Translations under genes and position numbers: made by a program | Shown here: positions 9,657 to 60,505 of the stretch, piece by piece | How positions within the stretch are numbered: the first letter of the stretch is position 1 | Layout: every line of letters begins with the position of its first letter | Source: an uncultured delta proteobacterium | GTDB taxonomy: Bacteria; Desulfobacterota; Binatia; UBA9968 | NCBI GenBank assembly: GCA_963804165.1 | Contig: CAWDPO010000045.1 | Location: forward strand, 64,001 to 128,000 | Reading direction: 5' to 3' | DNA: 64,000 nt | Notes under the pieces: model-generated | Database searches by the model: none | What the model saw: the letters and a program-made list of their open reading frames with translations, nothing else | Told to the model about the DNA's origin: nothing

Positions 9657-9745
9657 TTCAGCCTCCCTAATTGGACCGGTTGGAGGGTTAGGACGGCAGG
9701 CCTAGAACAAATCTAGGTAACCGTCGAACGTAACCCCATGCCATA
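9657..9745 (-). ncRNA. Conserved 5' leader element, copy L1
   Basis: GGGGUUAC-N7-GGUUAC, hairpin CCUAGA/UCUAGG closed by GACGG/CCGUC, UAACCCUCC, then SD GGGAGG. Confidence 0.5.
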
Positions 9746-9782
9746 ATTTTATAAAACCTATCCTGACCATGACGGATTGCTC

Positions 9783-10085
9783 TTAGTTGCTCGTTTGATG
9801 CGCGGCAAATTCGAGAGCTTTGAGACGATATTCCAGCTGTTCCTGAAACCATGTATCCCTGGGCCAGTGCCACTGCGCATGCGGCAGAGACTCGCCGCTA
9901 TAGGAGCAGCCATTCACCTTGCTCTGCAAGAAAATGAGCTGCCAGTAGCTCAGCTTGTCCTTTCCCGCACCATCAACACGAGTTCTGGTAAAAAGTTCTT
10001 TCACCAGTTCTGTAATCCCGCTCAAGGACTCTTGCGCCAGGAGTCCAACCGGAAATGATAGATTGTCCAGATGACCCACCTTCAT
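9783..10085 (-). CDS. Hypothetical protein, 100 aa
   Basis: GGAGG RBS before ATG 10085; downstream of Crp box 3. Confidence 0.5.
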   Translation of the reverse strand: MKVGHLDNLSFPVGLLAQESLSGITELVKELFTRTRVDGAGKDKLSYWQLIFLQSKVNGCSYSGESLPHAQWHWPRDTWFQEQLEYRLKALEFAAHQTSN

Positions 10086-10343
10086 TGCGACCTCCGCGAT
10101 AATTTTTTTCTTCAGACCAAAAGCAGTCCGCGCGCACGACTCGGGCCGGTTGCAGCGCGATGGTTCCTGTCCGCTCTTTTGCCGGTGTTTTAGTCCTGGC
10201 CCGGCCGGTATTATGGACAGATCGAGCGCAGCACAAATGGAGAGCGGAGAAAGCCATGCGAGTCGTCGCTTAACAACCACTACTCGGCCTCCTCGTCTAA
10301 ACCGTCTATTGGATTCAATCTATGCCGACTCGACAGAAGTTTC

Positions 10344-10359
10344 CGTCTAATATTGGACA
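10344..10359 (-). promoter_or_regulatory. Crp-type box 3 (CGTCTAATATTGGACA)
   Basis: TAGATT exactly 21 nt downstream on the minus strand. Confidence 0.75.
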
Positions 10360-10478
10360 GGAATTGAAAAGAATTATCACACCCAGCTTCCAATCACTAA
10401 AAAATGCTCCGGGACACGTTTTCATTGCGTAATATCAACGAATTTTGGCAAACGATGCAGAAACATCGGCTGATTTCT

Positions 10479-10507
10479 TTGACAAAGGTCCTGGCCATCC
10501 TTACCTT
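10479..10507 (+). promoter_or_regulatory. Sigma70-type promoter of hsp20-lon
   Basis: TTGACA-N17-TACCTT. Confidence 0.6.
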
Positions 10508-10554
10508 TATTTATTAGCGCTTGCGTTAGCGAATGGCCTGGAGGCCCATAAAAT

Positions 10555-10986
10555 ATGGCGTCGCACGATTGGGATTTCTTGATTTGGCATCGAGCTAACG
10601 ATCTGCTGCAGCAAGCAGGGCGGATCCATAGGAACTTTTTGCAAATAGCAGCCGGCGCTCACTATCGGGCATCTCCTGGTAGATCGCCAAGTTGGGAACC
10701 TCCCGTTAACGTCGTTGAGACTGATGAGAGCCTTTGGGTGATTTCGGCCATCGCGGGAATGGCAGCCGAGCGAGTAGATGTACGGCTGGAGGGACGCGAA
10801 CTTATCATTGCGGGCGTACGCCCGCTGCCAGATTGCTGCTCTGACGGGGAATTAAAGGTATGGGAAATCCCGCTCGGCCGCTTTGAGCGGCGACTCAGGC
10901 TCGTGCCAAGCGAACAAGCTCTATCGGTAGGAGAAATTTCTTTTCGAGACGGCCTGCTGATCATCGAGCTAAGGAAACATGCATGA
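10555..10986 (+). CDS. Hsp20/alpha-crystallin family protein
   Basis: WEPPVNVVET, EIPLGRFERRLRL, DGLLII; ATGA overlap with lon. Confidence 0.88.
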   Translation: MASHDWDFLIWHRANDLLQQAGRIHRNFLQIAAGAHYRASPGRSPSWEPPVNVVETDESLWVISAIAGMAAERVDVRLEGRELIIAGVRPLPDCCSDGELKVWEIPLGRFERRLRLVPSEQALSVGEISFRDGLLIIELRKHA

Positions 10987-13397
10987 ACACCGAAGAAGAA
11001 GAAAAGGAATCCTCTAAATCCAAGCAGCGTCTCAATATTCCCGAAGGAGCCTTGGTCATCATACCGATGCGCAATCGGGTGCTGTTCCCCGCCATGATGA
11101 TGCCGCTTTCGGTCCGTAGCCCGGCCAGGCGCCGCGCTGTCGAGGAGGCGGTTCGACAACAAGTGCCGATTGGATTTGTTGTCCAACGCGATCCGAATAT
11201 AGAAGTTCCAGAGCCCAAGGACCTCTACGCGGTCGGCACCGCCGCGGATGTTGTAAGGATGTTTACCCTGCCGGACGGTCAGCGTCAGGTTCTCCTGCAA
11301 GGCCGCCGCCGCTTTGAGATCGGCGAATTCCTCGAGACCGATCCGGTTCTTATCGCGCGCGTCACGATGGTGGAAGAAAAGATACCGCAGACCAAGGACT
11401 TCGAGGCGAGAATCTTACATCTACGTCAAGAAGCAGCCCGGGCCTTGTCGTTATTCTCTGAGCCCATGAACGAACTAAGATCGATGATCGATAGGATTGA
11501 AGATCCCTTATCGGTTATCGATATGATCGCTTCCACCTTGGACCTTCCGACCGCCGAGAAACAAGAAATCCTCGGAATACTCGACCCGGAGGCGCGCGCC
11601 CAAAGGGTTTCAGAAAAGTTGGCGCGGCAGATTGAACTGCTGGAACTGAGCAAGAAAATCGGCACTGAAACCAAGGAATCCATGGACAAGTCGCAGCGCC
11701 AATATTTCCTGCGCGAACAATTGAAGGCAATCCAGAAAGAGCTGGGTGAGGCGGATGGGAAAGGTGTCGAGGTTGAGGAACTAAGAAAAAAACTTTACGA
11801 CGCTAAAATGCCTCCTGAGGTGGAAAAAGAAGCGCTTAAAGAGCTGGCTCGTTTAGAGCGCATTCCCGAGGCGGCGCCGGAACACTCGCTGTTGCGGACT
11901 TATTTCGATTGGTTGGTGGAGTTGCCCTGGAGCATTTTTACCGAGGAAGAGATCGACCTGCCGAAGGCGCGCCAGATTCTTGACGCCGACCATTACGGTC
12001 TGGAAAAAGTGAAAAAGCGGATCATTGAATTTCTCGCTGTTCGTAAACTCATGCCGCATGGAAAGAGCCCGATTCTCTGCTTGGTCGGACCGCCGGGTGT
12101 CGGAAAAACCTCCCTTGGACAAAGCATTGCTCGGTCGATGAATCGTAAGTTCGTACGCCAAAGTCTGGGCGGCGTCCATGATGAAGCCGATATTCGCGGG
12201 CATCGGCGTACCTATGTCGGCGCGCTTCCGGGCAATATCATTCAAGGAATCCGCAAGGCAGGCAGTCGAAATCCTGTCTTCATGCTCGATGAAGTGGACA
12301 AACTCAGCGCGAGTTTTCATGGCGACCCGTCCGCGGCGTTATTGGAGGTCCTCGATCCCGCTCAAAATGCCACCTTTCAAGACCACTACATCGCGCTGCC
12401 CTTCGATCTCAGCCAGGTGCTGTTCATCGCTACGGCGAACGTGCTCGATACCGTTCCCGGCCCGCTGCGCGATCGCATGGAAATCTTGGAATTGCCGGGA
12501 TACATCGAGGAAGATAAATTGGCCATCGCCAAGGGCTACCTCGTTCCTCGGCAGACCGCCGAAAATGGCCTGAAGCCGGAAAACATTAGTTTCACCGACG
12601 AGGCGATTCGAGAAATTATCCGGTCCTACACGCGCGAGGCCGGGGTTCGGCAACTCGAGCGTGAGCTGGGAGCAGTTTGCCGGAGCGTGGCCACGCGTAT
12701 CGCGGAAGGGTTCAATGAAACGATCACAGTCAAGCCGGAATCTATTCCTACCTACTTGGGCCCGCAAAAGTTCTTCAACGAGATCGCTCTGCGCACCAGT
12801 TTGCCCGGTGTAGCCACCGGCTTGGCCTGGACGCCGTTCGGCGGGGACATTTTGTTTGTCGAAGCGACAAAGATGGCGGGAGATGGAAGGTTACTATTAA
12901 CCGGCCAGCTCGGCGATGTCATGAAAGAAAGCGCGCAGGCCGCTTTGAGCCTGGTCAAATCTCGCGCGGAATCGTTGGGAATCGATTCCGATATCTTCAA
13001 GAAAATCGATTTACACATTCATCTCCCGGCGGGCGCGATCCCGAAAGACGGTCCGAGCGCTGGAATCACGCTCTTTGTCGCGCTCGTTTCACTGCTGACC
13101 GGGCGACGAATCAGCAAAGATGTCGCCATGACCGGTGAGATCAGTTTGCGTGGTTTGGTGCTCCCGGTAGGAGGAATCAAAGAGAAAATGCTCGCGGCAA
13201 AGAGAGCCGGGATTTCCACGGTTCTGCTGCCTGAGTTAAACCGGAGAGACCTTGAAGAAATACCCCCGGCAGGCCGCGACGGGATCCGCTTCGAATTTTT
13301 AAAAACCGCGGACGAAGCTTTGCGGCTTGCGCTCAAGGCCGACGCCCCGAGCGGTTATTCTCCTGGTGAAAGACTGGCGGCTCAATTTCTTTCATAA
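10983..13397 (+). CDS. lon: ATP-dependent protease La
   Basis: LON N-domain, GPPGVGKT, HRRTYVGALPG, PKDGPSAG (catalytic Ser), VGGIKEK. Confidence 0.96.
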   Translation: MNTEEEEKESSKSKQRLNIPEGALVIIPMRNRVLFPAMMMPLSVRSPARRRAVEEAVRQQVPIGFVVQRDPNIEVPEPKDLYAVGTAADVVRMFTLPDGQRQVLLQGRRRFEIGEFLETDPVLIARVTMVEEKIPQTKDFEARILHLRQEAARALSLFSEPMNELRSMIDRIEDPLSVIDMIASTLDLPTAEKQEILGILDPEARAQRVSEKLARQIELLELSKKIGTETKESMDKSQRQYFLREQLKAIQKELGEADGKGVEVEELRKKLYDAKMPPEVEKEALKELARLERIPEAAPEHSLLRTYFDWLVELPWSIFTEEEIDLPKARQILDADHYGLEKVKKRIIEFLAVRKLMPHGKSPILCLVGPPGVGKTSLGQSIARSMNRKFVRQSLGGVHDEADIRGHRRTYVGALPGNIIQGIRKAGSRNPVFMLDEVDKLSASFHGDPSAALLEVLDPAQNATFQDHYIALPFDLSQVLFIATANVLDTVPGPLRDRMEILELPGYIEEDKLAIAKGYLVPRQTAENGLKPENISFTDEAIREIIRSYTREAGVRQLERELGAVCRSVATRIAEGFNETITVKPESIPTYLGPQKFFNEIALRTSLPGVATGLAWTPFGGDILFVEATKMAGDGRLLLTGQLGDVMKESAQAALSLVKSRAESLGIDSDIFKKIDLHIHLPAGAIPKDGPSAGITLFVALVSLLTGRRISKDVAMTGEISLRGLVLPVGGIKEKMLAAKRAGISTVLLPELNRRDLEEIPPAGRDGIRFEFLKTADEALRLALKADAPSGYSPGERLAAQFLS

Positions 13398-13429
13398 AAT
13401 AGATTGGCTCGCATAACCGACAACGGAGC

Positions 13430-13668
13430 CGCCAGTTTATAGGAACTTGTGGTGCGATCGAGCGTAAGTGTGACAACACATCAATTCCCTGGAGGCGAGG
13501 CGGGTGAAGATCGGAAAGCACGAGATCAAATCGAAACTTGTCTAGCAAGTCCAGAGCCTCATCGCCGTCTCTTGCCTCTTTGACCTGGTAACCCGCTGCG
13601 CACAAAAACAGCCTGACACTTTGTCGAATGAGAGGGTCAGCTTCGATAACTAGAAATTTTTTTGTCAC
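13430..13668 (-). pseudogene. Truncated response regulator receiver domain
   Basis: FLVIEAD...DLVLSD...PQVPI, then similarity is lost where it meets the 3' region of lon. Confidence 0.55.
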
Positions 13669-13875
13669 GATGAGAGCCGAAGACGGCTGTGCAGCAGCCC
13701 CTACTTTTGGCCGCCACTTATCGAAGCACCGCTCCGCCCCGTTTAAGACTGCCTGTCGAAAGGCGAACCGGAATTGTCTAGCAACATAGCCGAGTCGTTG
13801 GTTAAGTGGAGCGCCTGATGAGGTTTCTGAGATCGCGTTGATCGTTTCGTTAGCTGCTCAATATTCTATTTTGAT

Positions 13876-14310
13876 TTAGACCGCCCTGCGCTGCTCGGCC
13901 GTCGTCTCATGAGCAGATTGCTTGTGTGACGATATCCGGTCGCCGTCGTGCCAGCGCCGGAGCCCTTGGCGGATATACTGCGGGCATAGCTCGAGCACAT
14001 TGCAAATGGAGACAAACGAGAAGGGCCAATGAGGATCATCGCTGAACAACCAATGCTCGGCTTCCCGACCTAAATGTTTGGCGCGCCGGGTAGCGCGGCT
14101 AAACTGCTTCTGAAAGCAATCCACGGCATCTTCAAGCACGGCGCACATCAACGCCGCTTCTGCATAGCTAACGGCGCGGCTGGGTCGAGCATTGAACGCC
14201 TCGTCTGCGAGCATGTCCTTCCCGGGCCCGCGTTCGGATACGGGCTTTCGGTCAGCGGCCACGGCCTGCGGTAATTTGCTTTGCCGAGATTGGATGTGCG
14301 TAGCATGCAT
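13876..14310 (-). CDS. Conserved hypothetical protein
   Basis: LMCAVLEDAVDCF..EAEHWL.SDD..WPFSFVSIC..L motif; GAGGAGG RBS. Confidence 0.7.
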   Translation of the reverse strand: MHATHIQSRQSKLPQAVAADRKPVSERGPGKDMLADEAFNARPSRAVSYAEAALMCAVLEDAVDCFQKQFSRATRRAKHLGREAEHWLFSDDPHWPFSFVSICNVLELCPQYIRQGLRRWHDGDRISSHKQSAHETTAEQRRAV

Positions 14311-14468
14311 ATTGCCCCTCCCTCCTCTAAGAAATGCCAAAAAAGTGCAGCGCGACCCCTACTATGACGGGACCAAGTTGCGCGTTGCTTGGAGCCAGCT
14401 CAAGCCCAGCGCCAAAACTGAGCGAAAAAATTCTAATAAAGTTTACGAGATTCCTGTTGGCTGTAAAT

Positions 14469-14669
14469 TCAGGTCTCGTTCTGCCTCTCCAGCGGCAAAT
14501 GCGCTTCCCCACATCGTCGTTGCCGATCACGCGCGTCTCGGTGTGAGAGCCCTTGCCTCAACGAGATGATTTCATCTCGAGTTTCCCCTAGTACTGGATT
14601 GCTTTCACGGTCGCTTCTGCCTCGGTGTGGGGGTCGTCGACCCTCAGCACGGCGGTTGTCGGTAGCCAT
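14469..14669 (-). CDS. Possible small protein or decayed gene
   Basis: GGAGG RBS and Crp box 4 directly upstream; product not recognisable. Confidence 0.3.
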   Translation of the reverse strand: MATDNRRAEGRRPPHRGRSDRESNPVLGETRDEIISLRQGLSHRDARDRQRRCGEAHLPLERQNET

Positions 14670-14722
14670 GGGACACCTCCGTCTCTTTCGGAGTTACCCT
14701 AAGCCGACGCGATAAGGGTTTC

Positions 14723-14738
14723 TGTCTAATATTGGACG
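14723..14738 (-). promoter_or_regulatory. Crp-type box 4 (TGTCTAATATTGGACG)
   Basis: TAGGGT 21 nt downstream. Confidence 0.75.
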
Positions 14739-14922
14739 AAAAGGAAGAGGAAATAATGAGAGCCCCAAGAAATGGGCGGGGCTTATCACCAGCGCCGGAG
14801 CGGCGACTCAAAGTTCGGACTAGATTACTCTTTCGCGGTGAAAACGCAGTGATTTGACGCGTAAATACCAAATTTGCTGTCTTCGAAATTTGCGCTTAGA
14901 CGTCGTTTAAACGGCCGTCGTC

Positions 14923-15411
14923 CTAAGCGAGCGAGAAAGCAAACGGATCGCTTCGCATCAGCATCTCTCTGATTTCATCCCGATGTTTTTTCTGCTCTCG
15001 GGAAATCTGCTGCAGAAATTTGGCGATGTCGGGGTCTTCGGATTCCATACTCCGGAGTTGCTCCGGTAGGCGATCCGCCGAGCGATACTCTTCGTCGAGA
15101 GCCATGGACAAAGATTGCCAACTGTTTTCGTCCGTTGAGGGACGCTCCGCCACTTCCGGCGGCTTGCCCCCGAGCGCGACGATTTTTTCGCCGATCCGCT
15201 CGGCATGTTGACTTTTTTCCTTCGCCATCCGCAGGAATTTCTCGCGATACTGCCGATAGTGCATCGTCTCGGCATGCTGTTTAAACCGCTCGATCCGCTG
15301 CATCTCTTCGACATAGCGCCGGCATAAAAGGTCGACGGCGTCGGGAGCTTTGTCGGGAGCAAGATCGAGCAAACGGCGCCACCATTCCGACCAGGTTTTG
15401 CTAAAGGGCAT
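14923..15411 (-). CDS. Ferritin-like domain protein
   Basis: EE..., EKSQHAERI..KIVALGG, DEE, EQKKH four-helix pattern. Confidence 0.7.
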   Translation of the reverse strand: MPFSKTWSEWWRRLLDLAPDKAPDAVDLLCRRYVEEMQRIERFKQHAETMHYRQYREKFLRMAKEKSQHAERIGEKIVALGGKPPEVAERPSTDENSWQSLSMALDEEYRSADRLPEQLRSMESEDPDIAKFLQQISREQKKHRDEIREMLMRSDPFAFSLA

Positions 15412-15721
15412 ATTGATTATTCCTTTTTTGAAAAGCCGCTCATACTCTCGAGCAATCAATCGATGCTAAGCGAGAGTTTCGACTCGCAGGCTTTTTCTTT
15501 TGTGTTTCGGTTCGATCATTCTTCACCGACTTACATAATCGCGGCCCGGCAGGAATTGCTGTCCAGAGAGGCCGAGTTGAAGCGTGGTGAAGGCGAGTTC
15601 GGGAATCTTTCTTCACCGCAGAGAGCTAGCGCGACAGGGCGGCAATCAAAGAAGAAAGGATGGTTTCCACCACAAAGAGCTTAAGCGGCATAGAAATGTC
15701 ACCGATTCACGATCAAGCAAA

Positions 15722-17143
15722 TTACTCACTACCACTTTGTCCCCGGGATTGCGCTTCCTCTGGATTGGTATCAGGAATCGAGGCTTCTTCTCGAAAGCCG
15801 TATTTAATCAATTTATAACGCAGCGCCCGCTCGCTCATTCCCAGCAACTCTGCGGCGCGGGTTTGGACGCCATCGGATCGGGCCAGGGCGTCCCTGATCA
15901 TGCGCCGCTCCAGCGCTTCCACCGCGACCGTGAGATTAGTTTCCGTGTCGCGGTCCGATATTTCTGGCTCCTGAACCGTCAATGGTAGATCACCGCTGCC
16001 GATCACATCATCCCTGGTGAGAACCACTGCGCGCTCGATAATATTTTCCAGCTCGCGGACATTTCCCGGATAGTCGTAGCGTAACAGAATATCCCGGGCT
16101 TCATGGGTAAGACCGCGGATCGTCTTGCCGTTTTTATCAGCGAAATGGCGCAGGAAGTGGTCCATCAGCAGTGCAACATCGGAGCGCCTTTCCCGCAGCG
16201 GTGGAATTAGGATCGTGACTACATTGAGCCGAAAGTAGAGATCTTCCCGCAGCTGTCCCGCTTTGATGAGATCCTCGAGCGGCCGATGGCTGGCCGCCAT
16301 GATCCTGACGTTGACCTTGACCGGACGACTGGAGCCCACCTTCTCGTATTCGCGCTCTTGAAGCACGCGCAGCAGCTTCGCTTGCAGATGCAAGGGAAGG
16401 TCGCCGATTTCGTCGAGAAAGATCGTCCCACCATTGGCTAATTCAAAGCGCCCCTGGCGCGAACCTATCGCGCCCGTAAAAGCGCCTTTTTCATGGCCGA
16501 ATAATTCCGATTCGAGCAGCGCTTCCGGAAGTGCCGCGCAGTTTACCTTGACGAGAGGACCCGAGGCTCTTGGGCTGGCAAAGTGGATGGCCCTGGCAAT
16601 CAGCTCTTTTCCCGTGCCGCTCTCGCCACGGATCAAGACCGTCGCTTCGCTCGGCGCCACCCGACGCACCAAAGAAAGGACTTCAAGCATCTGGCCGCTC
16701 TCGCCGATGATTCCTTCGATGCGATGGCGTTCCCGTAAGGCTTCCCGCAGCTCGCGGTTCTCGTTGATAATTCGATAGCGGTCGCTGACCTGTCGAATGC
16801 GGTAAAGCAGCTCATCCAAATTCAGCGGCTTGGTCAGGTAGTCGGTCGCTCCTCCCCGGATAGCGGAAACGGCCGCTTCGATGCTGCCGAAGGCGGTCAT
16901 CAAAATGACCGGGATTTCAGGGTTGATGGCGCGAACGGCCTGCAACAGATCCAAACCCGACATGTGGGGCATCTTTTGATCCGTGAGAATCAGATCGATG
17001 GAGTCCTGCCGAAAAAGCTCCAAGGCCCTTGCGCCGGTTTCGGCTGCGACGACGTCAAAGGCCTGCTTTTTGAGGAAACCCGAGACCATCTCGCGCTGGA
17101 CCGGTTCGTCGTCGACTACGAGAATACGGAAACGATTGGGCAT
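15722..17143 (-). CDS. Sigma54-dependent response regulator (NtrC/ZraR/AtoC family)
   Basis: REC (VVDD, TDQKMP), GESGTGKE, ESELFGHEKGAFTGA, Fis-type HTH. Confidence 0.95.
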   Translation of the reverse strand: MPNRFRILVVDDEPVQREMVSGFLKKQAFDVVAAETGARALELFRQDSIDLILTDQKMPHMSGLDLLQAVRAINPEIPVILMTAFGSIEAAVSAIRGGATDYLTKPLNLDELLYRIRQVSDRYRIINENRELREALRERHRIEGIIGESGQMLEVLSLVRRVAPSEATVLIRGESGTGKELIARAIHFASPRASGPLVKVNCAALPEALLESELFGHEKGAFTGAIGSRQGRFELANGGTIFLDEIGDLPLHLQAKLLRVLQEREYEKVGSSRPVKVNVRIMAASHRPLEDLIKAGQLREDLYFRLNVVTILIPPLRERRSDVALLMDHFLRHFADKNGKTIRGLTHEARDILLRYDYPGNVRELENIIERAVVLTRDDVIGSGDLPLTVQEPEISDRDTETNLTVAVEALERRMIRDALARSDGVQTRAAELLGMSERALRYKLIKYGFREEASIPDTNPEEAQSRGQSGSE

Positions 17144-18894: not shown

Positions 18895-18914
18895 GATTGC
18901 TTGCTAATATGCAA

Positions 18915-18946
18915 CGACCCCCAGGGCCGGTTGGTCCCAGGGGTCG
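18915..18946. terminator. GC-rich stem-loop between ompA-like gene and kinase
   Basis: CGACCCC...GGGGTCG inverted repeat; no strong U-tract, so possibly a partial terminator or mRNA stabiliser. Confidence 0.35.
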
Positions 18947-19006
18947 TTCGTTACTTTACTTCTCTGGCTTTAAGATTTGCTCTGCCAGAATGATCGATCT
19001 TGCCCG

Positions 19007-19909: not shown

Positions 19910-19952
19910 AACTTTTTTCCTCCACTAAAATTTTTGCTAAACGATCTCCAGC

Positions 19953-20075: not shown

Positions 20076-20126
20076 TTCCGTCGATTTACGAACTCGACGT
20101 TCTTTCCTGGCTTAATCATCGGCTGT

Positions 20127-23681: not shown

Positions 23682-24362
23682 CTAGGCAATCTGCGCGAGG
23701 TAATCGGTGAGTTTGTTTTCCTTGATGATGAGAAAATGATCGCTATTGGTTTCGATCAATCCCAGGTTGCGAAATCGCTGCATGAAGAAGCTGATCCGAG
23801 GCCGTGTCGTGCCCACCATCGCGGATAATTCTTCATGGGAAATCTTCAGCTCGATGCGAATACTGCGCGGATCTTTCTTGCCCATGGTGCGGGCCAATTG
23901 CAGCAACGTCTGACCCAGCCGTTGCTCGCTGTCCGCCGTCACCAGATTGGCGATGACGTGCTGTTGGTCGGCGATACGAACGGCCAGGTAGCGCACGAAT
24001 CCCTCAGACAAGGAGTCGCGGTTTAAGCGCGCAAAGAACTGGGCACAGGGTATTTGTTTTAACGTCGTTGGTTTCATCGCCACCGCAGTTTCGTGCCGCG
24101 CCCCTAACCCGGATAAGCACAGCTCGCCGAAAACATCTCCGCTGCTATGGATGGCCAGCAGACATTCTTTACCTTCGGGCGAGAGCAGAAGCAGCTTGAT
24201 CTGGCCGGTCTCGATGAAATAGACCATCTCGTCCTGGTCGCCGCAGGTGTAAACATTCGCGTGCCGTGCGAACGTCACAGGACGAGAGTTCAGCGTCTCG
24301 TGCTGCAACGAATCGCGCATTTGCTCTTTGAAGCGTTCCGCTTCGGGAGTCTGTTGAATCAT
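23682..24362 (-). CDS. Crp/Fnr family transcriptional regulator (paralog 2)
   Basis: Closely similar to 4766-5455; HTH SHEELSAMVGTTRPRIS. Confidence 0.92.
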   Translation of the reverse strand: MIQQTPEAERFKEQMRDSLQHETLNSRPVTFARHANVYTCGDQDEMVYFIETGQIKLLLLSPEGKECLLAIHSSGDVFGELCLSGLGARHETAVAMKPTTLKQIPCAQFFARLNRDSLSEGFVRYLAVRIADQQHVIANLVTADSEQRLGQTLLQLARTMGKKDPRSIRIELKISHEELSAMVGTTRPRISFFMQRFRNLGLIETNSDHFLIIKENKLTDYLAQIA

Positions 24363-24407
24363 GGGTCGCGTTTCCGACTAATGGCGCTGAGCCCAATCTC
24401 CGGCGCT

Positions 24408-24450
24408 CTTTTGAACAAGTAACCTCAGGAGTGAAACCCTATGCCTTAAA
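24408..24450 (-). ncRNA. Conserved leader element, copy L2 (partial)
   Basis: UUAAGGCAUAGGGUUUCACUCCUGAGGUUACUUG, nearly identical to the 5' part of L3. Confidence 0.45.
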
Positions 24451-24484: not shown

Positions 24485-24634
24485 TTAAAGCCGGCCGGTC
24501 AAGAGCAGAACAACCACGATCAGCAGAACGACACCAGCGAGACCCGAGGGCGCAAAGCCAAATTTGTGAAAACCCCAGTTCGGTAGACCTCCCACCAGAA
24601 ACAGAAGCAATACGATCAACAGTATCAGGCTCAT
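24485..24634 (-). CDS. DUF3309 family small protein, 49 aa
   Basis: Hand-translated MSLILLIVLLLFLVGGLPNWGFHKFGFAPSGLAGVVLLIVVVLLLTGRL. Confidence 0.8.
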   Translation of the reverse strand: MSLILLIVLLLFLVGGLPNWGFHKFGFAPSGLAGVVLLIVVVLLLTGRL

Positions 24635-24680
24635 AGTCAGTTACCTTCTTTCGATTTTTCTTTTCTCAATGACGATAGGA

Positions 24681-29799: not shown

Positions 29800-30111
29800 C
29801 TAACGCTTGATAACTTGCAGATTGTTGACTACCCGTTTGACGCCGCTCACCTGCGACGAAACCGATCCGATGTGGGACTTCTGCTCGCCGGTCTCGACTT
29901 CGCCGGTGAGATAGACAATGCCGTTATTGGTCTCGACTCCCACTCGCGACAGGGTGACAAGCTTGTCTGTAGCAAGTTTAGTCTTTACGGACGAAGTAAG
30001 AGCTCCATCATCGAGGTTTTGTCCCATGGTCTCGCCGGTCATCGCCTGGCAACCGCTCATGAAAAAAAGAACTACCAACGTACCTGCCAACATTTTAAAT
30101 TTCCGGATCAT
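29800..30111 (-). CDS. BON domain lipoprotein
   Basis: Lipobox MSGC; DD..LTSSVK..L; VET.NGIVYLTG; VSGVKRVVNNL. Confidence 0.9.
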   Translation of the reverse strand: MIRKFKMLAGTLVVLFFMSGCQAMTGETMGQNLDDGALTSSVKTKLATDKLVTLSRVGVETNNGIVYLTGEVETGEQKSHIGSVSSQVSGVKRVVNNLQVIKR

Positions 30112-31099: not shown

Positions 31100-31327
31100 C
31101 TAATAAAGGATCGACCCTTTTTCTAGCTGCGATTTACGAGTTTCGTATTCTTTGCGGGATATTCTCTCGGCTTTGTAATCATCCTCGAGCTGGTTCATCT
31201 TGCTATGGGCGTTGATTTCGTAACCAGCGCTTGTGCCCAGGGCTCCCACCGCCGCTCCGCCCAAGAACGCACAGCCGCTTTGACTGACACCGATCAAAAG
31301 CACTAACACCAACATTAACTTTTTCAT
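31100..31327 (-). CDS. Small lipoprotein with glycine zipper
   Basis: Lipobox QSGC; GGAAVGALG; AAGGAGG RBS. Confidence 0.75.
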   Translation of the reverse strand: MKKLMLVLVLLIGVSQSGCAFLGGAAVGALGTSAGYEINAHSKMNQLEDDYKAERISRKEYETRKSQLEKGSILY

Positions 31328-31420
31328 CGCAACCTCCTTGGGTTGGACTGAGTAGGAGGGTTAAGTCAGGCTTACTTGAAGAATTTCAAGCGACCTCAGG
31401 TGTGAAACCCTATGCCTTAA
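31328..31420 (-). ncRNA. Conserved leader element, copy L3
   Basis: AGGGUU...GCUUGAA/UUCAAGU hairpin...AACCCUCCU...AAGGAGG; begins at the start site predicted from box 15. Confidence 0.55.
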
Positions 31421-31456
31421 ACATCTTGAACGATACGCTGACGAGTTAGAGAGTAC

Positions 31457-31472
31457 TGTCTAAAAAGAGACC
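31457..31472 (-). promoter_or_regulatory. Crp-type box 15, degenerate (TGTCTAAAAAGAGACC)
   Basis: TATCGT 21 nt downstream; A-rich distal flank. Confidence 0.5.
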
Positions 31473-31547
31473 AATTAAAAAAGAAATGTCTTGAGGCCGG
31501 GACTTTTGCTCAAGGGGCTTTTCCACCGATATCTCTGGCCATATTTG

Positions 31548-39282: not shown

Positions 39283-39576
39283 CTAATAAACTGGCGTGCG
39301 GTATTGGCCTAGACTCATCATGAGCAGAAACACCAACTTCAATCGCTTCACTTCAACCTCGTCAGTCGGACCGGCGCGAAGCAGTCTTTTTTCGTTGCGA
39401 AGATTCTTTTCGGCGAGCGCGTTGACCTGCTGTGCGGTGCCATGTTTGTACCCGGGTCGCGCATCAAGGTGCTCTCTGGGAGCGCCGGAGGCAGCTTCTT
39501 TAGAAGATGCAACCCGTCCGTCCGCATTGAGACCAAGAGCCATCATGAGAACTGACAGCAACATTAATTTTTTCAT
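39283..39576 (-). CDS. Exported hypothetical protein
   Basis: Signal peptide MKKLMLL; downstream of box 8. Confidence 0.6.
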   Translation of the reverse strand: MKKLMLLSVLMMALGLNADGRVASSKEAASGAPREHLDARPGYKHGTAQQVNALAEKNLRNEKRLLRAGPTDEVEVKRLKLVFLLMMSLGQYRTPVY

Positions 39577-39619
39577 CGCGTCATCCTTCGTTGGGAGTGA
39601 CTAGCGTTTGAGCCAAGGT

Positions 39620-39660
39620 GCTTTGCACATTTTCAAGTAACCCGCGCGGCTGAAACTTAA
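39620..39660 (-). ncRNA. Conserved leader element, copy L4 (degenerate)
   Basis: AGUUUC-N9-GGUUACUUGAAA. Confidence 0.3.
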
Positions 39661-49939: not shown

Positions 49940-50035
49940 GCAACTGTCGCTGAGTAAGCCCAGCATGAAGATCAAAAGACTCCCATGGCAGGCTCGAGCA
50001 CAATGCTCGGGTGCCAGTGCCAGAAGGAAGGGAAC

Positions 50036-52812: not shown

Positions 52813-52892
52813 GTTGCCTCCACCTGGGATTTCTCCCTTGTAGGTCCTTTTCGTGAAAAAAACGCACCATATTATCCTTCTGGTTAACAATC

Positions 52893-52908
52893 TGTCTAAA
52901 ATTGGACA
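52893..52908 (-). promoter_or_regulatory. Crp-type box 13 (TGTCTAAAATTGGACA)
   Basis: TATGGT 21 nt downstream. Confidence 0.75.
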
Positions 52909-52934
52909 AATTGAAGAAAAAATGGCCACGCGGT

Positions 52935-53335
52935 TTGGCGCAAGTGGAGGTAACATCGGAGGAGGCGGCGCACCCGATCGAGTCGGGATTGCTAACCGGG
53001 GACTGAATCGGGTTGGCGAGCTGCGCAACCGGGACCGCAGACCGTGCGCCTTGTGTTTGACCAGCCGCTGAGAATCAAGCGTCTGCATTTGGATTTTCGC
53101 GAAGATGAATTGGAGCGCACTCAGCAGTTTGTGCTGCGGTGGTTCGTCAAACGGCGGGCAATCCTATCGGGAAATCGTGCATCAGCAGTATAATTTCAGC
53201 CCTCCCGCCACGAACAGTGAGTGCGAGGATTATCCTGTGGAACTTGACGGTGTCACCACGATCGAGCTGAGCATCGTTCCAGACATCAGTGGCGGACCGG
53301 CCCGCGCGTCGCTCGCGCAGTTTCGCCTTGCGTGA
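52935..53335 (+). pseudogene. 5'-truncated, twice-frameshifted putative carbohydrate-binding protein gene
   Basis: VEVTSE..HPIES / GWRAAQPGPQTVRLVFDQP..RTQQFVLRW / REIV.QQYNFSP..PDISGG.ARASL in three separate reading segments. Confidence 0.6.
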
Positions 53336-53379
53336 GCACTGCGAAGCCTTTGCATCATGACCGGCGCGGGGGGCTCGGT

Positions 53380-53730
53380 CTAACTCCTCTTGGTCATTTC
53401 AACCTTGGCAAAGCAGCGCTGAATAAAAGCTCCTAGCGGCCCCGCCGCTTGCCGTCGCAGAATCTCGCCGAGATCCCCCTTATTGAGCCAAATCCCTTCG
53501 CAACTTTCACAGCGCTCTACAACAAAGCCCTTAACAGCGTATTTCGCGAATTGTCCTGAACACTTCGGGCAAGTCGCCATCTGAACTTCCCGCCGGGCCG
53601 CTTCAGCCTTGTGAAATTCGAACTTCATATCTTCGACCAGCTCATGTTCTTTCCCGGCAAAATAACGATCTTCGTTGGCGTGCTCATCGAACTGCGGTTC
53701 ATCGCCGGGCCGCCGCGTTTCGCTCTTCAT
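53380..53730 (-). CDS. zf-TFIIB zinc-ribbon protein
   Basis: NEDRYF; CPKC..ERCESC.GIWL.KG.L. Confidence 0.8.
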   Translation of the reverse strand: MKSETRRPGDEPQFDEHANEDRYFAGKEHELVEDMKFEFHKAEAARREVQMATCPKCSGQFAKYAVKGFVVERCESCEGIWLNKGDLGEILRRQAAGPLGAFIQRCFAKVEMTKRS

Positions 53731-53795
53731 ATTTCGCTCTCCTGACTTCATTGAATCATCGCCGGTCGATGCACCCCTCATTGCCAATTCAGCGG

Positions 53796-55895
<2,100 letters not shown>

Positions 55896-56046
55896 GTGTA
55901 ACTCAGCTTTCTTTTTGAAAGACTCTTTGCCGGGTTCCGGCGGATTGATAAGAGCGATGGAAGTTAAATCCACCGCGGCGGGGAAAAACTATCGGCGCCG
56001 CCTCATTCCTGCTGTACTCATTGACGTCGGCTCGGTGTTCTTCGTG

Positions 56047-56617
56047 CTACACTTTTCGGTAAGGGTTGACGTACTCCTCGTAGAGCCCTTCCTTGCCTTT
56101 GGCTTGTAACTCGCGCGACCGGTCCGTGAGAACCTTTTTGTCTTCGACAAAAGCCTTCCTGGTAAATCCTAAATTACCGGGATGGGTGCCGGTGTCCATG
56201 CGAATCGCGTCGCACGGACAGGCTTCGACGCAAAAGCCGCAATAGATGCAGCGCAACGTATCGATTTCATAGCGCACCGCGTACTTCTCGACCGGATCAC
56301 GCGGGTCTTCTCCGGCCTCGATGTAGATACACTCAGCCGGGCAGGCAGTTGCGCACAAGAAAGCAAGCCGTGCAGTTGGCGGTGTCATCCGCGCCGAGAG
56401 TCAGACGGTGACGGCCGCGAAAGGTGTCCGGGTAAGAAGCTCTTTCCTCCGGATATTGCACCGTGACATCGGCTTGACGGGTTTTCGCCAAACCGAAGGC
56501 GTGCAAAATATGGATGCTCAGATTACGCCAAAAGCGGAACCCGGTTACGGAGAGACCGCGCACGATCTCCGGCACGTACGCTCTCTCCCAGAGCGACATG
56601 TGTTCAATTCTTTTCAT
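56047..56617 (-). pseudogene. nuoI: NuoI-like 2[4Fe-4S] subunit with a one-base frameshift
   Basis: TVQYPEE..FRGRH..CTACF | [19 protein letters not shown]; one extra A in the run at 56360-56362. Confidence 0.8.
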
Positions 56618-56637
56618 CGCTCACCCGTTGGGAAAAA

Positions 56638-57246
56638 TCATTTTGGTAGGCTGTCTTCGAGATTATCCGCCAACTCGCCGCCCATGTAGAGTTCAATTTG
56701 CTTTTTTTCCAGCCGTCGTTTTTCCTCGGCGTCCATGACGTACACGCCGTTCACCGCATCGATTTGCTTTGGCTCGTAAAAATTCCTGGACAGCTCGGCG
56801 CCCTCGTCGAATTCGTACATCTTTATCGCATCCCAGGGGCAGATTTTTTTATCGAGCCGATCGTCGGACTCCGTGCCAATCAGCTCCAGCTGAAATTTCT
56901 TCGGCAGCCTGTTCTCATCGACCGGCTTTTTGGAGCTGTCGTAATATCTCCCGGCATACTCGCGGAAGATTTCGCCGGTTTCCTTGTGCCGATGGATCTT
57001 GGTTAAATCATCACTGAAACACATCTGGCAGCCGATGCACTTGTCGTTGTCTACCCAGACTCGATAGGGCTTCAGTCCTCCGGCGGGGGTTTCCTCATAG
57101 AGTAAATTAATGCAGTTTTCCACCGGGCAGTGGAGTTCGCATAGCGGCGAGCCGGCACAGCTACTACAATTTTCGTCCATGACGGCGAGCAGCGCGGTGC
57201 CTTTTCGCTTCTTCTTCTCTTCAGGTTGTGCCGTCAGATCTGGCAT
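56638..57246 (-). CDS. Atypical 4Fe-4S ferredoxin-like protein
   Basis: CSSCAGSPLCELHCP; CIGCQMC...long insert...CPWDAI. Confidence 0.75.
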   Translation of the reverse strand: MPDLTAQPEEKKKRKGTALLAVMDENCSSCAGSPLCELHCPVENCINLLYEETPAGGLKPYRVWVDNDKCIGCQMCFSDDLTKIHRHKETGEIFREYAGRYYDSSKKPVDENRLPKKFQLELIGTESDDRLDKKICPWDAIKMYEFDEGAELSRNFYEPKQIDAVNGVYVMDAEEKRRLEKKQIELYMGGELADNLEDSLPK

Positions 57247-57510
57247 GCTTTCTCTCCAGTAGGTTACTGAACACCTCTTTTGACGCCTGTATTCATCCTG
57301 ATCGTGCCCGTGAGACTTGACCCGTGAATTAATCGAGCACAATCACATGCGCGCAGGCAGCGGTCTGGCAACTGGATCCAAGAACCTCTTGATTGTCTTT
57401 GACTAGGGACCATACGCAAAATCACGAATAGGCACACGCTAACCGCGTCAAACGGCTTGCCAAAAAAGAGCCTTTTCGATTTAAACTTACCTTGTGTGGG
57501 AAGGGGTTAC

Positions 57511-57526
57511 TGTCTAATATTGAACG
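57511..57526 (-). promoter_or_regulatory. Crp-type box 14 (TGTCTAATATTGAACG)
   Basis: TAAGTT 21 nt downstream. Confidence 0.72.
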
Positions 57527-57708
57527 AGTTTGCAAAGAAATTAGCGCCTCCCCAAATGTGCCTAAACAGCCGCGCTGAACGACCCATGGCAAGCCATCCC
57601 TTTCACAAGGAGTGACTCATTTTAAATCGAAGAGGACCGCAATTTTTTCAGCCGACCCAACATAATTGGACACTCTTACTTCCATCGCAGGGGGTTAGGC
57701 GTAACGAT

Positions 57709-57936
57709 TTATGACGGCGAGGGAGGGTCATCGATCCATGCTTCCGCCAAGCCTATCATGTGCTTTTCTGTTTCCCGCCAACTGTCGAAATTATAGAGAG
57801 GGCCAATTATCGTGTGTGATCCTCGCCGACCGTCAGCTTGCCAACTGATGTCAGCGATAGGAACCCAAGACCTAGTATTTTCGTCGAACCGAGCGGATAC
57901 AACGATGAGCGGATTTTTGTAGAACAAATTGGCCAT
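57709..57936 (-). CDS. Small hypothetical protein, CV_2116-like family (copy 3)
   Basis: YKNPLIVV..W.PIADISW...ETE....AEAWID; GGGAG RBS. Confidence 0.6.
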   Translation of the reverse strand: MANLFYKNPLIVVSARFDENTRSWVPIADISWQADGRRGSHTIIGPLYNFDSWRETEKHMIGLAEAWIDDPPSPS

Positions 57937-58117
57937 GCGGGCTCCCCTGCTCGGGCTTCCGGTCACCGCTGACCCGGTTTTTTTAAGCTCGGACAAATAT
58001 AGATTAGCTTCTGCATGTTGCTACCGGATGCAAGACAATGGCTTATTGTTAGCTACATGACAATTCAAAATGCGTCACGATCCTTTCAGTCTCGTACTTT
58101 TCCGCTGTTATTCAATA

Positions 58118-58152
58118 CGGTCCGGGAAAGGGGGTAGCCCCTTCCCGAACCG
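58118..58152 (-). terminator. Stem-loop downstream of ABM gene
   Basis: CGGT.CGGGAA.GGGG / CCCCTTCCCG.ACCG. Confidence 0.45.
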
Positions 58153-58167
58153 AAAGGCCTCTTTGGA

Positions 58168-58485
58168 CTAGGCCGCTTTCGCTGCGATCTGGTGGGAAGT
58201 CGAATTGGCGACCTCAAAGGACTCCACTTTCGGAGTGCCGTCAACCACCTTGGACAGGGTCTTCAAGACCTCGGGATATTTCTCGCGATTGTAAGCTTCC
58301 GCGTCTTCTTTCTTATCCCAGAAACTAATCGCTACCGCATCGTTACGTTCTGGGGCGACGAGGGTGATCTCGTCCTTAAATCCCTTTTGTTTGCGGAGCA
58401 CGGGAATTACCTCGTTCTCAAGAGTGCGGGCAAACTCCGTCGCGCTATTGGCCTTCAGCTTCATACTGACGTTGCGAGTATACAT
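58168..58485 (-). CDS. ABM-like protein (copy 2)
   Basis: MYTRNV..IPVLRKQKGF..ISFW..KEDAEAY. Confidence 0.72.
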   Translation of the reverse strand: MYTRNVSMKLKANSATEFARTLENEVIPVLRKQKGFKDEITLVAPERNDAVAISFWDKKEDAEAYNREKYPEVLKTLSKVVDGTPKVESFEVANSTSHQIAAKAA

Positions 58486-58578
58486 TTCAACCTCCTTGGT
58501 TGGACTGGTGGTAGGGTGGAGGATTTTGGGCTTACGTGAAGAATTTCAGGTAACCGAGGAAGGAAACCCTAGGACTAA
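58486..58578 (-). ncRNA. Conserved leader element, copy L5
   Basis: AGGGUUU/AAAUCCU pairing, GGUUAC hairpin, UCCUCC anti-SD, AAGGAGG. Confidence 0.55.
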
Positions 58579-58586
58579 CTTCTTTA

Positions 58587-58614
58587 ACAGTAGTCACTAA
58601 GCACCCGTTGTCAA
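58587..58614 (-). promoter_or_regulatory. Sigma70-type promoter
   Basis: TTGACA-N16-TACTGT immediately before L5. Confidence 0.5.
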
Positions 58615-58812
58615 GGTGAATCTCGAAGACGCCCCGAGCAAATCCACTTGTCCAGAAAAAGGAACGTCGATCTTACGGTTCGCTCGCCGCGCGCGGATCA
58701 TCTGCGTGATCGGTCGAAGGGCAATCCACCTACAACGGGAATAAAAATCGATCGGTGATAGTTATTTCTCCAGCCATAGCGGAAGATATCCTTATCCTGT
58801 GGCCGGCAGAGC

Positions 58813-59307
58813 TCAGGCTGAAACCTGGGCAGTTCTTACCAGCCATTTCTCCTGCATGATCTTGTCCTGGATTCTCAGAAGGCCCTCGGTCAAGGCTTCC
58901 GGCCGTGGCGGGCAGCCGGGAACATAAACGTCGACGGGAATGATTTTGTCCACGCCTTTGCAGACCGAATAGGCGAGCTGAAAAAGCCCGCCGCAGTTGG
59001 CGCAGCTGCCCATAGAAATGACGTACTTCGGATCAGGCATCTGATCGTAGAGGAGCTTGGTGCGCTTGGCCATTTTGTAGGTCAGTGTGCCGGCGACGAT
59101 CATCAGATCGGATTGTCGCGGCGTGGCGCGCGGCACTGCGCCGAAGCGATCGATATCGGCGCGCGGACCGCCCGTCTGCATCAACTCGATAGCGCAACAA
59201 GCCAAGCCGAACAACATGTACCATTGCGACGAGGCGCGGCCCCAGTTGAGCAGCTCGTCAACCTTTGTTGTAAAAACGGTTTCCGGTAACTGGTTCAATA
59301 ACGACGT
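58813..59307 (-). CDS. nuoB: NADH-quinone oxidoreductase subunit B (stand-alone)
   Basis: [29 protein letters not shown]; start is ACG 59307 or TTG 59298. Confidence 0.9.
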
Positions 59308-59320
59308 AAAAACCTCCTGG

Positions 59321-59581
59321 TCATCGTTTCTGCTCGATAACCGTCACTTCTTTATCGATCCAATGCATGGCGTCTTGCAGGGCAAACTCGTCGGCTTCGT
59401 TTTCACTCCAAAACGCTTTGTCGAGTTGAGCGTGATGCGATGAAACGCCACTGGTTTTGTTTTCGGCATCCTGACGCGTCACGGTATACTGTGGAATCCA
59501 GGTGCCTTTGGTTTCCCCCTGAAACGATTCACTGCGAATGAGACAGTTCTTGTATGAAATGCTGCTTTTCATTTTTTTCAC
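59321..59581 (-). CDS. Small hypothetical protein, CV_2116-like family (copy 4)
   Basis: Paralog of 3261-3488 (IRSESFQ, W.PQYTVT, EADEFA, WID). Confidence 0.65.
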
Positions 59582-59703
59582 TCCGTTGCCTCATCGTCGA
59601 TAAGGATCGTCTGGTGTTCGCTATTTACAATGTGAAACCTGTTCAATAGGATCCCAATGATTATCAAAGCCATAGGGATGGCGATAATGAATAAAGAACT
59701 CAA
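59578..59703 (-). CDS. 41-aa single-TM microprotein
   Basis: Hand-translated MSSLFIIAIPMALIIIGILL...; TTG start; GTGA overlap with the next gene. Confidence 0.45.
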   Translation of the reverse strand: MSSLFIIAIPMALIIIGILLNRFHIVNSEHQTILIDDEATE

Positions 59704-59810
59704 TCTATTTCCCTATTTGGCCGGAGCTGACGGCCCTTTGCTTGGAGGGGTGATGAAGAGAGGCTTACTTGAAGAATTTCAAGTAACCGCGGAGGCGAAC
59801 CCTACGACTG
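59704..59810 (-). ncRNA. Conserved leader element, copy L6
   Basis: Perfect UUACUUGAA/UUCAAGUAA hairpin; preceded by TTGCTA-N17-TAGGCT (59853-59825). Confidence 0.5.
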
Positions 59811-60101
59811 CGAGAAGAGAGTAAAGCCTAGGTGAATTAAGTCGTGATAGCAAGTCAAGCTGTGCAGACGTCAAGTGATGTCCGAGAATCCGTTATCTAC
59901 CTAATCTGCGCTGCAGCGACTTGCGAAAACGAGATACCAAAAACCGGATTCGGAGCATCGGATCATGTTCCGGTCAACTTCCCTTGCCGACCATCGCCAA
60001 CGAATGACAACTCACTGGTTTTTAATTTTTCTAGTGGTACAGGCCCAGTCGTAGTGGTCTGATACTTGTCGCGAATGTGATCGCTTTGACCGCCTGCAAA
60101 G

Positions 60102-60422
60102 TCATGCGGAAATTGCGCCGAGCAGCGGATCACTCGTCAAGTCTATGACTTCGAAGGCTTCCATGAAGGGCACGCTTTCAGTCACCATCGACAGAGTTCT
60201 CAAGACATCAAGATAGGCCACGTGATTGTAAGCGTCCGCATTCTCTTGGTTATCCCAGAAACTGATCGCGACTGCCTCGTTCCGCTGGGAAGTAACGAGG
60301 GTAATCTGATCCTGAAAGCCTTTTTGTGTGCGCAACAAAGGAATAATTCGCTCCTTCAGTAGCTGTCTAAACGCGTTTGCACTGTTGGCCCGGAGCTTAA
60401 TTCTGACGTTCCGCGTGTACAT
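60102..60422 (-). CDS. ABM-like protein (copy 3)
   Basis: MYTRNV..IPLLRTQKGF..ISFW..QENADAY. Confidence 0.72.
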   Translation of the reverse strand: MYTRNVRIKLRANSANAFRQLLKERIIPLLRTQKGFQDQITLVTSQRNEAVAISFWDNQENADAYNHVAYLDVLRTLSMVTESVPFMEAFEVIDLTSDPLLGAISA

Positions 60423-60505
60423 TGACCTCCCTGGTCAGTCTAGGTAGAGAGTTACTTTTTGTCAGTTCAATCTCTTGGGAAACCGTGAAGTGAAACCCGA
60501 TGCTG
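60423..60505 (-). ncRNA. Conserved leader element, copy L7 (diverged)
   Basis: GGGUUUC-N7-GGUUUC...UAACUCUCU...GGGAGG. Confidence 0.4.

Follow-up and report, generated by a model that had tools for sequence, protein, structure and literature searches.

The window analysed here, a stretch of 64,000 nucleotides (nt) from contig C45 (CAWDPO010000045.1, positions 64,001 to 128,000) of an uncultured bacterium of the Binatia, carries on its minus strand several copies of a leader that runs into the Shine–Dalgarno (SD) sequence and the start codon of the gene behind it. The genome to which the contig belongs is a metagenome-assembled genome (MAG) of 7.5 Mb in 46 contigs, 81% complete and with 5% contamination. 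Between positions 7700 and 62024, the window forms a stress and quality-control island. Its proteases are Lon, FtsH, and an M48 peptidase, and it has genes for Fe/Mn superoxide dismutase (SOD), a ferritin-like protein, and SufBD, which belong to oxidative stress, iron, and Fe–S metabolism. There are also genes for an OsmY/BON protein, CarD, and a DUF3309 protein, signalling genes for a sigma-54 activator with its histidine kinase and for a GGDEF protein, and, finally, GH130 and glycosyltransferases.

The first-pass annotation had listed seven leaders with the common motif GGGUUWC-N7/8-GGUUAC, which are numbered here c1 to c7 by position. The exact motif was found at 9736, 24439, and 58569, i.e., three times in the window against none in 100 shuffles; the other four sites deviate from it, bearing GGTCGC at 31410, GGGTTCG at 59800, GGTTTC at 60490, and, at 39645 (c4), GGGTTAC alone with the first repeat missing. 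When aligned, the sites are alike not in a short motif but over a stretch of about 95 nt reaching the start codon, with the consensus WWGGCRYR-GGGUUUC-(7–13 nt)-GGUUAC(Y)UGAAAUUCUUCAAGUAAGCC-(6–12 nt)-AACCCUC(Y)-AAYCAGUCCAACC-AAGGAGGUUGAA-AUG. A covariance model, R1, built from 14 leaders recovers five of the seven named sites (c5, c3, c1, c6, and c7). The repeat is real and specific and is not a product of chance.

Complete copies are c1, c3, c5, and c6, the last with a different 3′ end. The full leader c5 (58483..58581, minus strand as all the others; R1 91.7 bits, E 1.3e-18) precedes an ABM-like gene (58168-58485), and c3 (31325..31422; 86.5 bits) precedes the gene of a 75-aa lipoprotein (31100-31327), followed in the same operon by a 208-aa open reading frame (ORF) and an OsmY/BON-like ORF (29800-30111, with a BON/OsmY match). 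Copy c1 (9654..9748; 68.5 bits), in front of another ABM-like gene (9330-9656), has a divergent hairpin CCUAGA/UCUAGG closed by GACGG/CCGUC. The contrast of this hairpin with ACUUGA/UCAAGU, drawn in the first-pass annotation, is indeed in the sequence and separates c1 from c3 and c6, while c5 has a C·C mismatch there. In c6 (59714..59814; 50.9 bits), the 5′ helices P1 and P2, described below, are intact and a GC hairpin, GGCCGUCAGCUCCGGCC, replaces the 3′ part; the gene behind it is a hydrophobic ORF of 41 aa that starts with TTG (MSSLFIIAIPMALIIIGILLNRF...; 59584-59706) and comes from a family without a Pfam match. Eleven loci of this class cluster together, and the arrangement is the same in relatives.

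The remaining copies are incomplete. Copy c7 (60418..60510; R1 27.6 bits, E 8.9e-4), preceding the third ABM-like gene (60102-60422), is a degenerate leader that has kept GGGUUUCAC and the SD region without the P2 hairpin. A sigma-70 scan places a promoter-like CTGACA-17-TAGACT inside this leader, at 60465..60437 on the minus strand, where P2 would be expected, and a proximal promoter may have replaced the leader of this ABM paralog. Copy c2 (24360..24448), before a Crp-family gene (23682-24362), retains the 5′ third only (GGGUUUCACUCCUGAGGUUACUUG, with the exact motif at 24419-24439) and then diverges; it is not matched by R1 at E ≤ 0.01, and the full leader is present before the Crp ortholog of another genus (L099). 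The claim that the element precedes all three ABM-like genes and the Crp paralog is thereby borne out. The site c4 (39574..39650), read as GGGUUACUUGAAAAUGUGCAAAG in front of a 97-aa ORF (39283-39576), is doubtful: it has no R1 match and a non-significant nhmmer E-value of 1.5, and is treated as a remnant or a chance match. The same heptamer GGGTTAC forms a tandem of at least five units before a gene in a related genome (L018, G023:C3 ~4978-5012), a pattern match unrelated to the leader.

Elsewhere in the 7.5-Mb genome, further copies amount to an identical pair on contigs C2 and C24 and a P2-less variant at C24:91027, so that the window holds nearly all copies of the genome. The members of the identical pair (L001 and L002, G000 C2:247733-247829 and C24:86970-87066) agree as well in no fewer than 60 nt of upstream sequence and in the beginning of the lipoprotein gene that follows, and are either a real duplication or assembly redundancy.

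Beyond this genome, R1 has matches in 20 of the 23 genera of the family and in 59 of its 90 genomes, with 1–7 per genome and scores of up to 104 bits. The genome count includes four unpublished genomes (G005, G035, G076, and G079) with one match each, whose sequences were kept out of the alignments; without them it becomes 55 of 86. In a sample spread evenly over the class, 5 of 151 genomes were matched, all from family f1 except one from the sister family f2, where the gene behind the leader encodes a small membrane protein with, to the eye alone, a likeness to GlsB/YmgE. Close relatives of the ABM-like gene of the window come from MAGs titled Candidatus Binatia or bearing older labels such as Deltaproteobacteria bacterium. 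All 108 aligned matches have a single orientation and run into an SD and start region; the repeated, oriented leader ending in an SD and a start codon, as originally described, is supported by these matches.

Downstream genes were counted as the first ORF after each leader, found with a naive start-finder and clustered. ABM-like proteins of about 105 aa are the most frequent (32, plus about 8 mis-framed), followed by lipoproteins of 74–75 aa (26), hydrophobic peptides of 41–44 aa (11), a secreted protein (8), and sigma-70-family factors of the RpoD/RpoS-like type (5), with CarD, a Crp-family regulator, Fe/Mn SOD, and a glycosyltransferase found once each. Such a stress set, which includes regulators (the sigma factor, Crp, and CarD), suggests co-regulation. 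Hsp20 does not appear in the Binatia regulon: none of the seven Hsp20-like places in the own genome adjoins an R1 match, and its four strong Hsp20 genes lie on other contigs or at a distance from the matches.

Minimum free energy (MFE) folds and consensus folds obtained with RNAalifold give three helices. P1 pairs GGGUU with AACCC, the strands lying about 50 nt apart; in c5, the 5′ strand is read at 58565..58569 and is nearly invariant in 101 leaders, and the exact motif to which it belongs is a pattern match at 58550-58569. P2 is a long imperfect hairpin, GGUUAC(Y)UGAA-AUUC-UUCAAGUAAGCC, with a bulged G; its c5 version, GGUUACCUGAA-AUUC-UUCACGUAAGCC (58529..58555, a pattern match with one mismatch), carries the C·C mismatch and the bulged G. 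It is followed in c5 by an anti-SD-like AUCCUCC and then ACCC, the 3′ strand of P1 (58514..58524), read in the sequence and paired as the MFE folds predict. P3 is a predicted 5-bp hairpin CAACC/GGUUG, in which AAGGA of the SD occupies the loop and its last GG is paired (CAACC-AAGGA-GGUUG at 58488..58502 in c5).

Covariation among homologs, to which the first-pass annotation had tied its proposal, is present above shuffled controls for P1, P2, and P3 taken together but is modest. In an alignment of 101 leaders (A5) made with MAFFT and not fitted to the structure, 14 pairs are changed on both sides (7.0 ± 1.7 in 500 shuffles), there are 38 further pair types (28.5 ± 1.9), and 88.5% of the cells are paired (87.2 ± 0.2%); none of the 500 shuffles reaches any of the three values. 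In P3, A–U to G–C changes occur in the Binatia (pair 104-118, with GC in 5). The pair 29-53 is often broken, which tells against a clean helix, though a change of G to C there can instead pair with the bulged G. Six leaders without GGGUU are also without AACCC (L102, L073:201, L118, L105, L110:6072, and L115), three of them carrying GGAGGA...UCCUCC around P2 instead. G·U pairs outnumber A·C combinations, with 137 against 82 cells, or 128 against 42 when one polymorphic pair is set aside and 20 of the 21 pairs remain, sequences rather than events being counted. The junctions vary in length (7–13, 6–12, and 5–23 nt), and sequence conservation, the loop included, far exceeds covariation: in 20 of 23 genera, P2 hardly varies, loop and bulge included.

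Several other pairings were considered. An alternative helix GGGUUUCA:UGAAAUUC, exclusive with P2, was rejected with one two-sided change against 3.2 in shuffles, as was a small hairpin between the two repeats (UCA/UGA and CGC/GCG), which looks covarying in the window but is paired by only 13–30 of 106 leaders per position. A helix between the anti-SD (CCUC) and the SD is 83% complementary, and its covariation does not rise above shuffles because the SD never varies. Mimicry of the 3′ end of 16S rRNA beyond CCUCC was also discarded, as the 16S rRNA of the own genome, ending in ...CCUGCGGCUGGAUCACCUCCUUUCU, has only short words in common with the leader. A riboswitch would combine covarying stems around a core of conserved unpaired nucleotides with an alternative pairing of the SD or with a terminator. 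The stems of the leader show some double changes but are mostly invariant, and the element is not followed by a terminator, the one terminator-like structure called near c6 being encoded by the other strand.

The near-invariance of P2 invites another interpretation, namely that the inverted repeat TTAC(Y)TGAA-ATTC-TTCAAGTAA is a DNA operator located downstream of the promoters and bound by a repressor of the stress regulon, with GGGTTTC and the flanks serving as auxiliary contacts. Stress regulons are classically controlled by operators of this kind (CIRCE/HrcA and HAIR/HspR), and, like CIRCE, the repeat lies between different promoters and the starts of stress genes in many taxa. It is a 22-bp palindrome with few compensatory changes across 20 genera, and uncompensated changes of a half-site are common (CTGA for TTGA in about 40 of 101). 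Moreover, its core TTGA-N6-TCAA presumably resembles boxes of the Crp/Fnr type, and a Crp-family gene itself carries the element (c2 and L099), as would fit autoregulation. However, the four central nucleotides are as conserved as the arms, i.e., the loop AUUC of P2 does not behave as the spacer of a palindromic DNA site; conservation continues for about 95 nt to the start codon; and the centre of the site would lie about 45 nt after the inferred transcription start, at a variable distance from promoter-like hexamers. The joint loss of GGGTT and AACCC, some 50 nt apart, the variable spacer lengths, and the strand-asymmetric excess of G·U over A·C (3:1 in 20 of 21 pairs) are likewise at odds with an operator. 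The CIRCE inverted repeat, TTAGCACTC-N9-GAGTGCTAA, has no match in the window at up to three mismatches. A Crp/Fnr site has TTGA/TCAA arms, a non-conserved 6-bp centre, and a fixed position relative to the promoter (e.g., −41.5). In the leader, conservation of the centre, AATTCT, equals that of the arms, about 40 of 101 sequences have C for the first T of the left arm, and no −10-like hexamer with a conserved final T is found about 30 nt downstream. On this evidence, we regard a DNA operator as unlikely, though it is the foremost rival of the preferred explanation.

The sequences upstream of the leader fall into unrelated classes, which have their own −35/−10-like hexamers ending 17–22 nt before GGGTT. 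One class, that of c5, reads TTGACA-N16-TACTGT and ends 17 nt before GGGTT; that of c6 reads TTGCTA-N17-TAGGCT and ends 21 nt before it; and a third, TTGACA-N17-TAACGT-like, ends 22 nt before it. In a fourth, the palindrome GTCCAATATTAGAC and GTCAGCGTA is found, while in the fifth, which includes c2, the leader begins about 45 nt behind the stop of a DUF3309 ORF. In the window, this 50-aa ORF (24488-24637, minus strand) is below the 60-aa limit of the ORF listing and ends 45 nt before c2; the ending LLLTGRL*, as in this ORF, precedes about 10 leaders in relatives, which suggests that some elements are intercistronic within one operon. A palindrome GTCCAATATT(A/G)GAC followed by GTCAG(C/T)GTA stands 35–65 nt upstream of GGGTT in the window (~31440-31490, minus strand) and in most lipoprotein-type leaders of relatives and is a candidate class-specific operator plus promoter; its half-site GTCCAA recurs within the leader as CAGUCCAACC. 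Across the classes, nothing is conserved upstream of about −12, and we therefore infer that transcription starts about 10–15 nt before GGGTT.

It was also proposed in the first-pass annotation that the direct repeat itself might be an operator. In this explanation, GGGTTWC-N7/8-GGTTAC would be bound by a protein of the response-regulator type or would belong to a promoter for an alternative sigma factor, with GGCAT(A/G), for example, as a −10 or −24 box. The block WWGGCRYR-GGGTTTC is conserved, we take it to resemble loosely the −24/−12 layout of sigma-54 promoters, and the window contains genes for both a sigma-54 activator and a histidine kinase. Sigma-54 promoters carry GG at −24 and GC at −12 in the arrangement GG-N10-GC, but in the leader the GC dinucleotide is absent: GGCAT-AGGG-TTTCA offers CA or TC in its place in all classes. 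The proposal is weakened further by the spacing between the repeats, which ranges from 7 to 13 nt (8 nt in 12, 9 nt in 49, and 10 nt in 31 of 95 leaders) and, being variable, is easier to reconcile with an RNA junction than with an operator of two fixed sites. The second repeat, besides, is simply the 5′ strand of P2, there is no −35 sequence common to the classes, and information falls to near zero upstream of about −12. A direct-repeat operator or promoter element is, hence, very improbable. Eight copies of the own genome had hinted at a common promoter for an alternative sigma factor, its −35 lying about 23 nt upstream, but this signal disappeared when 93 upstream regions were taken together.

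The novelty of the leader was suggested in the first-pass annotation, and it is upheld by comparison with Rfam 15 (4227 models): cmscan at the gathering threshold gives no match in the whole window, and at E ≤ 0.1 there is none in 14 ABM loci of Binatia and Acidobacteriota. At E ≤ 10, the region 58400-60600 yields four chance-level hits below threshold (13–15 bits), three of them outside the element; the fourth, WT1-AS_5 (13.2 bits), crosses c6 on the opposite strand. Literature searches on Binatia/Binatota and Acidobacteria turned up no motif of this kind; supplements, which lay outside the search, may list such motifs.

Among described systems, ROSE thermometers of the small heat-shock genes of Alpha- and Gammaproteobacteria come close in layout, being 5′ leaders of about 100 nt with several hairpins, the last of which involves the SD, and occurring in several copies per genome before small stress genes. 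In ROSE, the 3′ hairpin pairs the SD and the start codon and melts with temperature, the SD facing a U(U/C)GCU tract that contains a bulged G. In contrast to ROSE, the Binatia leader has no Rfam match, and its SD is largely in the loop of a hairpin. The thermometer suggested in the first-pass annotation finds no support in prediction either, since the calculated mean unpaired probability of GGAGG in 57 leaders hardly rises between 15 and 45 °C, from 0.385 to 0.419. The short hairpin P3, with AAGGA in a 5-nt loop closed by CAACC/GGUUG, is reminiscent of leaders bound by CsrA/RsmA, in which a short SD-covering hairpin carries A(N)GGA in its loop. However, CsrA was rejected as the factor. It was not found in the own genome, at its 81% completeness, and is not co-distributed with the element: of 56 family genomes at least 90% complete, 15 have CsrA; carriers of several copies of the element lack it (G029, G077, G080, G101, G015, and G012), and some genomes have CsrA without the element (G004, G074, and G085). 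Finally, orphan cis-regulatory motifs of the Breaker/Weinberg type, such as Acido-1, are similarly conserved, oriented intergenic motifs before recurring genes in uncultured soil phyla; the covariation of stems in the Binatia leader is weaker, and its sequence conservation stronger, than is common in riboswitch aptamers.

A leader that may be related was met in another phylum. Terriglobales homologs of the ABM-like gene, with 55–60% identity, are preceded by a different conserved leader of about 105 nt with the core CUCUUUCAGGUUCCCUGAA-CUAAGUCAGCCCAUCUGAAGU, which is not in Rfam either and is represented by the MAG loci L134–L242 (e.g., L213:1501-1607 and L237:1501-1599). A model of it, R2, has 8–12 matches in each of four genomes, located before genes for ABM-like proteins, Hsp20, DUF2934 proteins, and small unnamed proteins (52–67 aa); the presence of Hsp20 in this set is another likeness to ROSE. 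The SD hairpin CAACC/GGUUG is the same and shows double changes from C–G to A–U in 6 of 64 leaders from Acidobacteria. A long-range helix N-UAAG...CUUA-N is closed by C–G in 60, by A–U in 31, and by a non-canonical pair in 5 of 96 leaders. The Terriglobales core GGTTCCCTGAAA--CT--AAGTCAGCC, aligned with GGTTACCTGAAATTCTTCAAGTAAGCC from the P2 region of the Binatia leader, scores 26 against 15.8 ± 3.0 in shuffles, and 18 of 2000 shuffles reach this value. R1 applied to ABM loci outside the Binatia matches the SD end only (E 0.018–0.88), so that the relation between the two leaders is carried by the similarity of the 27-nt core.

If the two are related, the Binatia and Terriglobales leaders may be two branches of a single family of general stress leaders, undescribed so far and spanning phyla, in which a single sequence-specific RNA-binding factor or small RNA reads the core GGUUNCCUGAA...AAGUNAGCC and controls the translation of a regulon of stress and dormancy genes (an alternative sigma factor, SOD, CarD, Hsp20, ABM-like proteins, and small envelope proteins). 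We offer this extension tentatively and hold it to be rather doubtful. The phyla concerned are largely devoid of the usual global RNA regulators, and in the own genome Hfq, like CsrA, was not found at the given completeness.

For the Binatia element itself, our confidence goes somewhat beyond even that it is a cis-acting leader RNA of a stress regulon, undescribed so far and probably bound by a trans-acting factor; in more general terms, it is likely a cis-regulatory leader new to the literature, likely with a relative in the Acidobacteriota. According to this reading, transcription would begin at gene-specific promoters about 10–15 nt upstream, and the first 95 nt or so would fold with P1 and P2 near the 5′ end, P1 closing P2, followed by a C/A-rich linker and by P3, which would display and partly pair the SD. 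Once P1 opens, the SD could be paired by the CCUCC/CCUCU tract that adjoins the 3′ strand of P1, and P1/P2 might thus govern the access of ribosomes, the stability of the mRNA, or both. Conservation of P2 goes beyond the needs of pairing and includes the loop and the bulge, so we suppose that this hairpin would act through a trans-acting factor specific for its sequence (a protein or a small RNA) rather than by a ligand pocket or by heat alone. The ABM-like protein was considered for this role and rejected, since an ABM homolog (E ≤ 1e-10) is missing from 22 of the 59 element-positive genomes, 10 of these 22 being at least 95% complete.

A number of observations speak against a leader RNA. Folds of single sequences are not unusually stable (z from −1.65 to +0.74), most stem columns hardly vary, and the effect in the covariation score is small (0.127 against 0.115 in shuffles, with 0.124 when the partners are slid by +1). 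The P2 pair 40-54 is C·A in 40 of 101 leaders, and its neighbour is unpaired in 19; an inverted repeat so conserved in primary sequence also fits a protein-bound DNA operator. In the Terriglobales leader, the A–U state of the long-range helix is, in the tree of ABM proteins, essentially confined to one clade of ABM paralogs and so corresponds to about one event. As to the 5′ end, the first-pass annotation had placed the element, in four cases, within about 10 nt of the predicted start sites of promoters of differing types. Hexamers conserved in position (TTGACA/TTGCTA and TAnnnT-like) can be read there, but a sigma-70 scan requiring at least 4/6 per hexamer calls no promoter upstream of c1, c3, c5, or c6, so that the start site is a predicted one. 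Of the words sampled, 6% occur in two soil runs, whose contigs, 90–95% alike, also cover the DNA upstream of the leader, which makes them uninformative on start sites and expression.

The same structural data could be accounted for by a constitutive module, in which the 5′-proximal P1/P2 protects the mRNA from 5′-end-dependent decay and the C/A-rich spacer with a displayed SD ensures strong translation, the whole having been duplicated among highly expressed stress genes and sensing nothing. The structure begins near the inferred 5′ end in every promoter class, the SD is mostly in the P3 loop of MFE folds with no long occluding helix, its predicted accessibility of about 0.4 is flat with temperature, and variants without P2 (C24:91027 and L114) retain the 5′ block and the ribosome-binding-site block. 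A stabiliser, however, needs stability and not a particular sequence, yet conservation across genera extends to loop, bulge, and unpaired blocks in a fold that is not unusually stable, and the coherence of the downstream stress genes, regulators among them, suggests co-regulation instead. We thus judge a constitutive module to be quite improbable and retain the leader RNA read by a trans-acting factor as the preferred explanation.

Binatia and Terriglobales are abundant soil bacteria, the former known here from MAGs only. If the preferred explanation is true, the 1–7 genes per genome that share the leader in the Binatia, and the 8–12 that share its Terriglobales relative, would constitute a stress regulon under post-transcriptional control, comprising a sigma-70-family factor, a Crp-family regulator, CarD, SOD, OsmY-like operons, and many uncharacterised small proteins, which shared regulation would bring together as a group. 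The highly conserved hairpin would itself be a bait for the factor that reads it. Should the inverted repeat prove to be a DNA operator instead, it would still define a regulon, together with the binding site of a new stress repressor.

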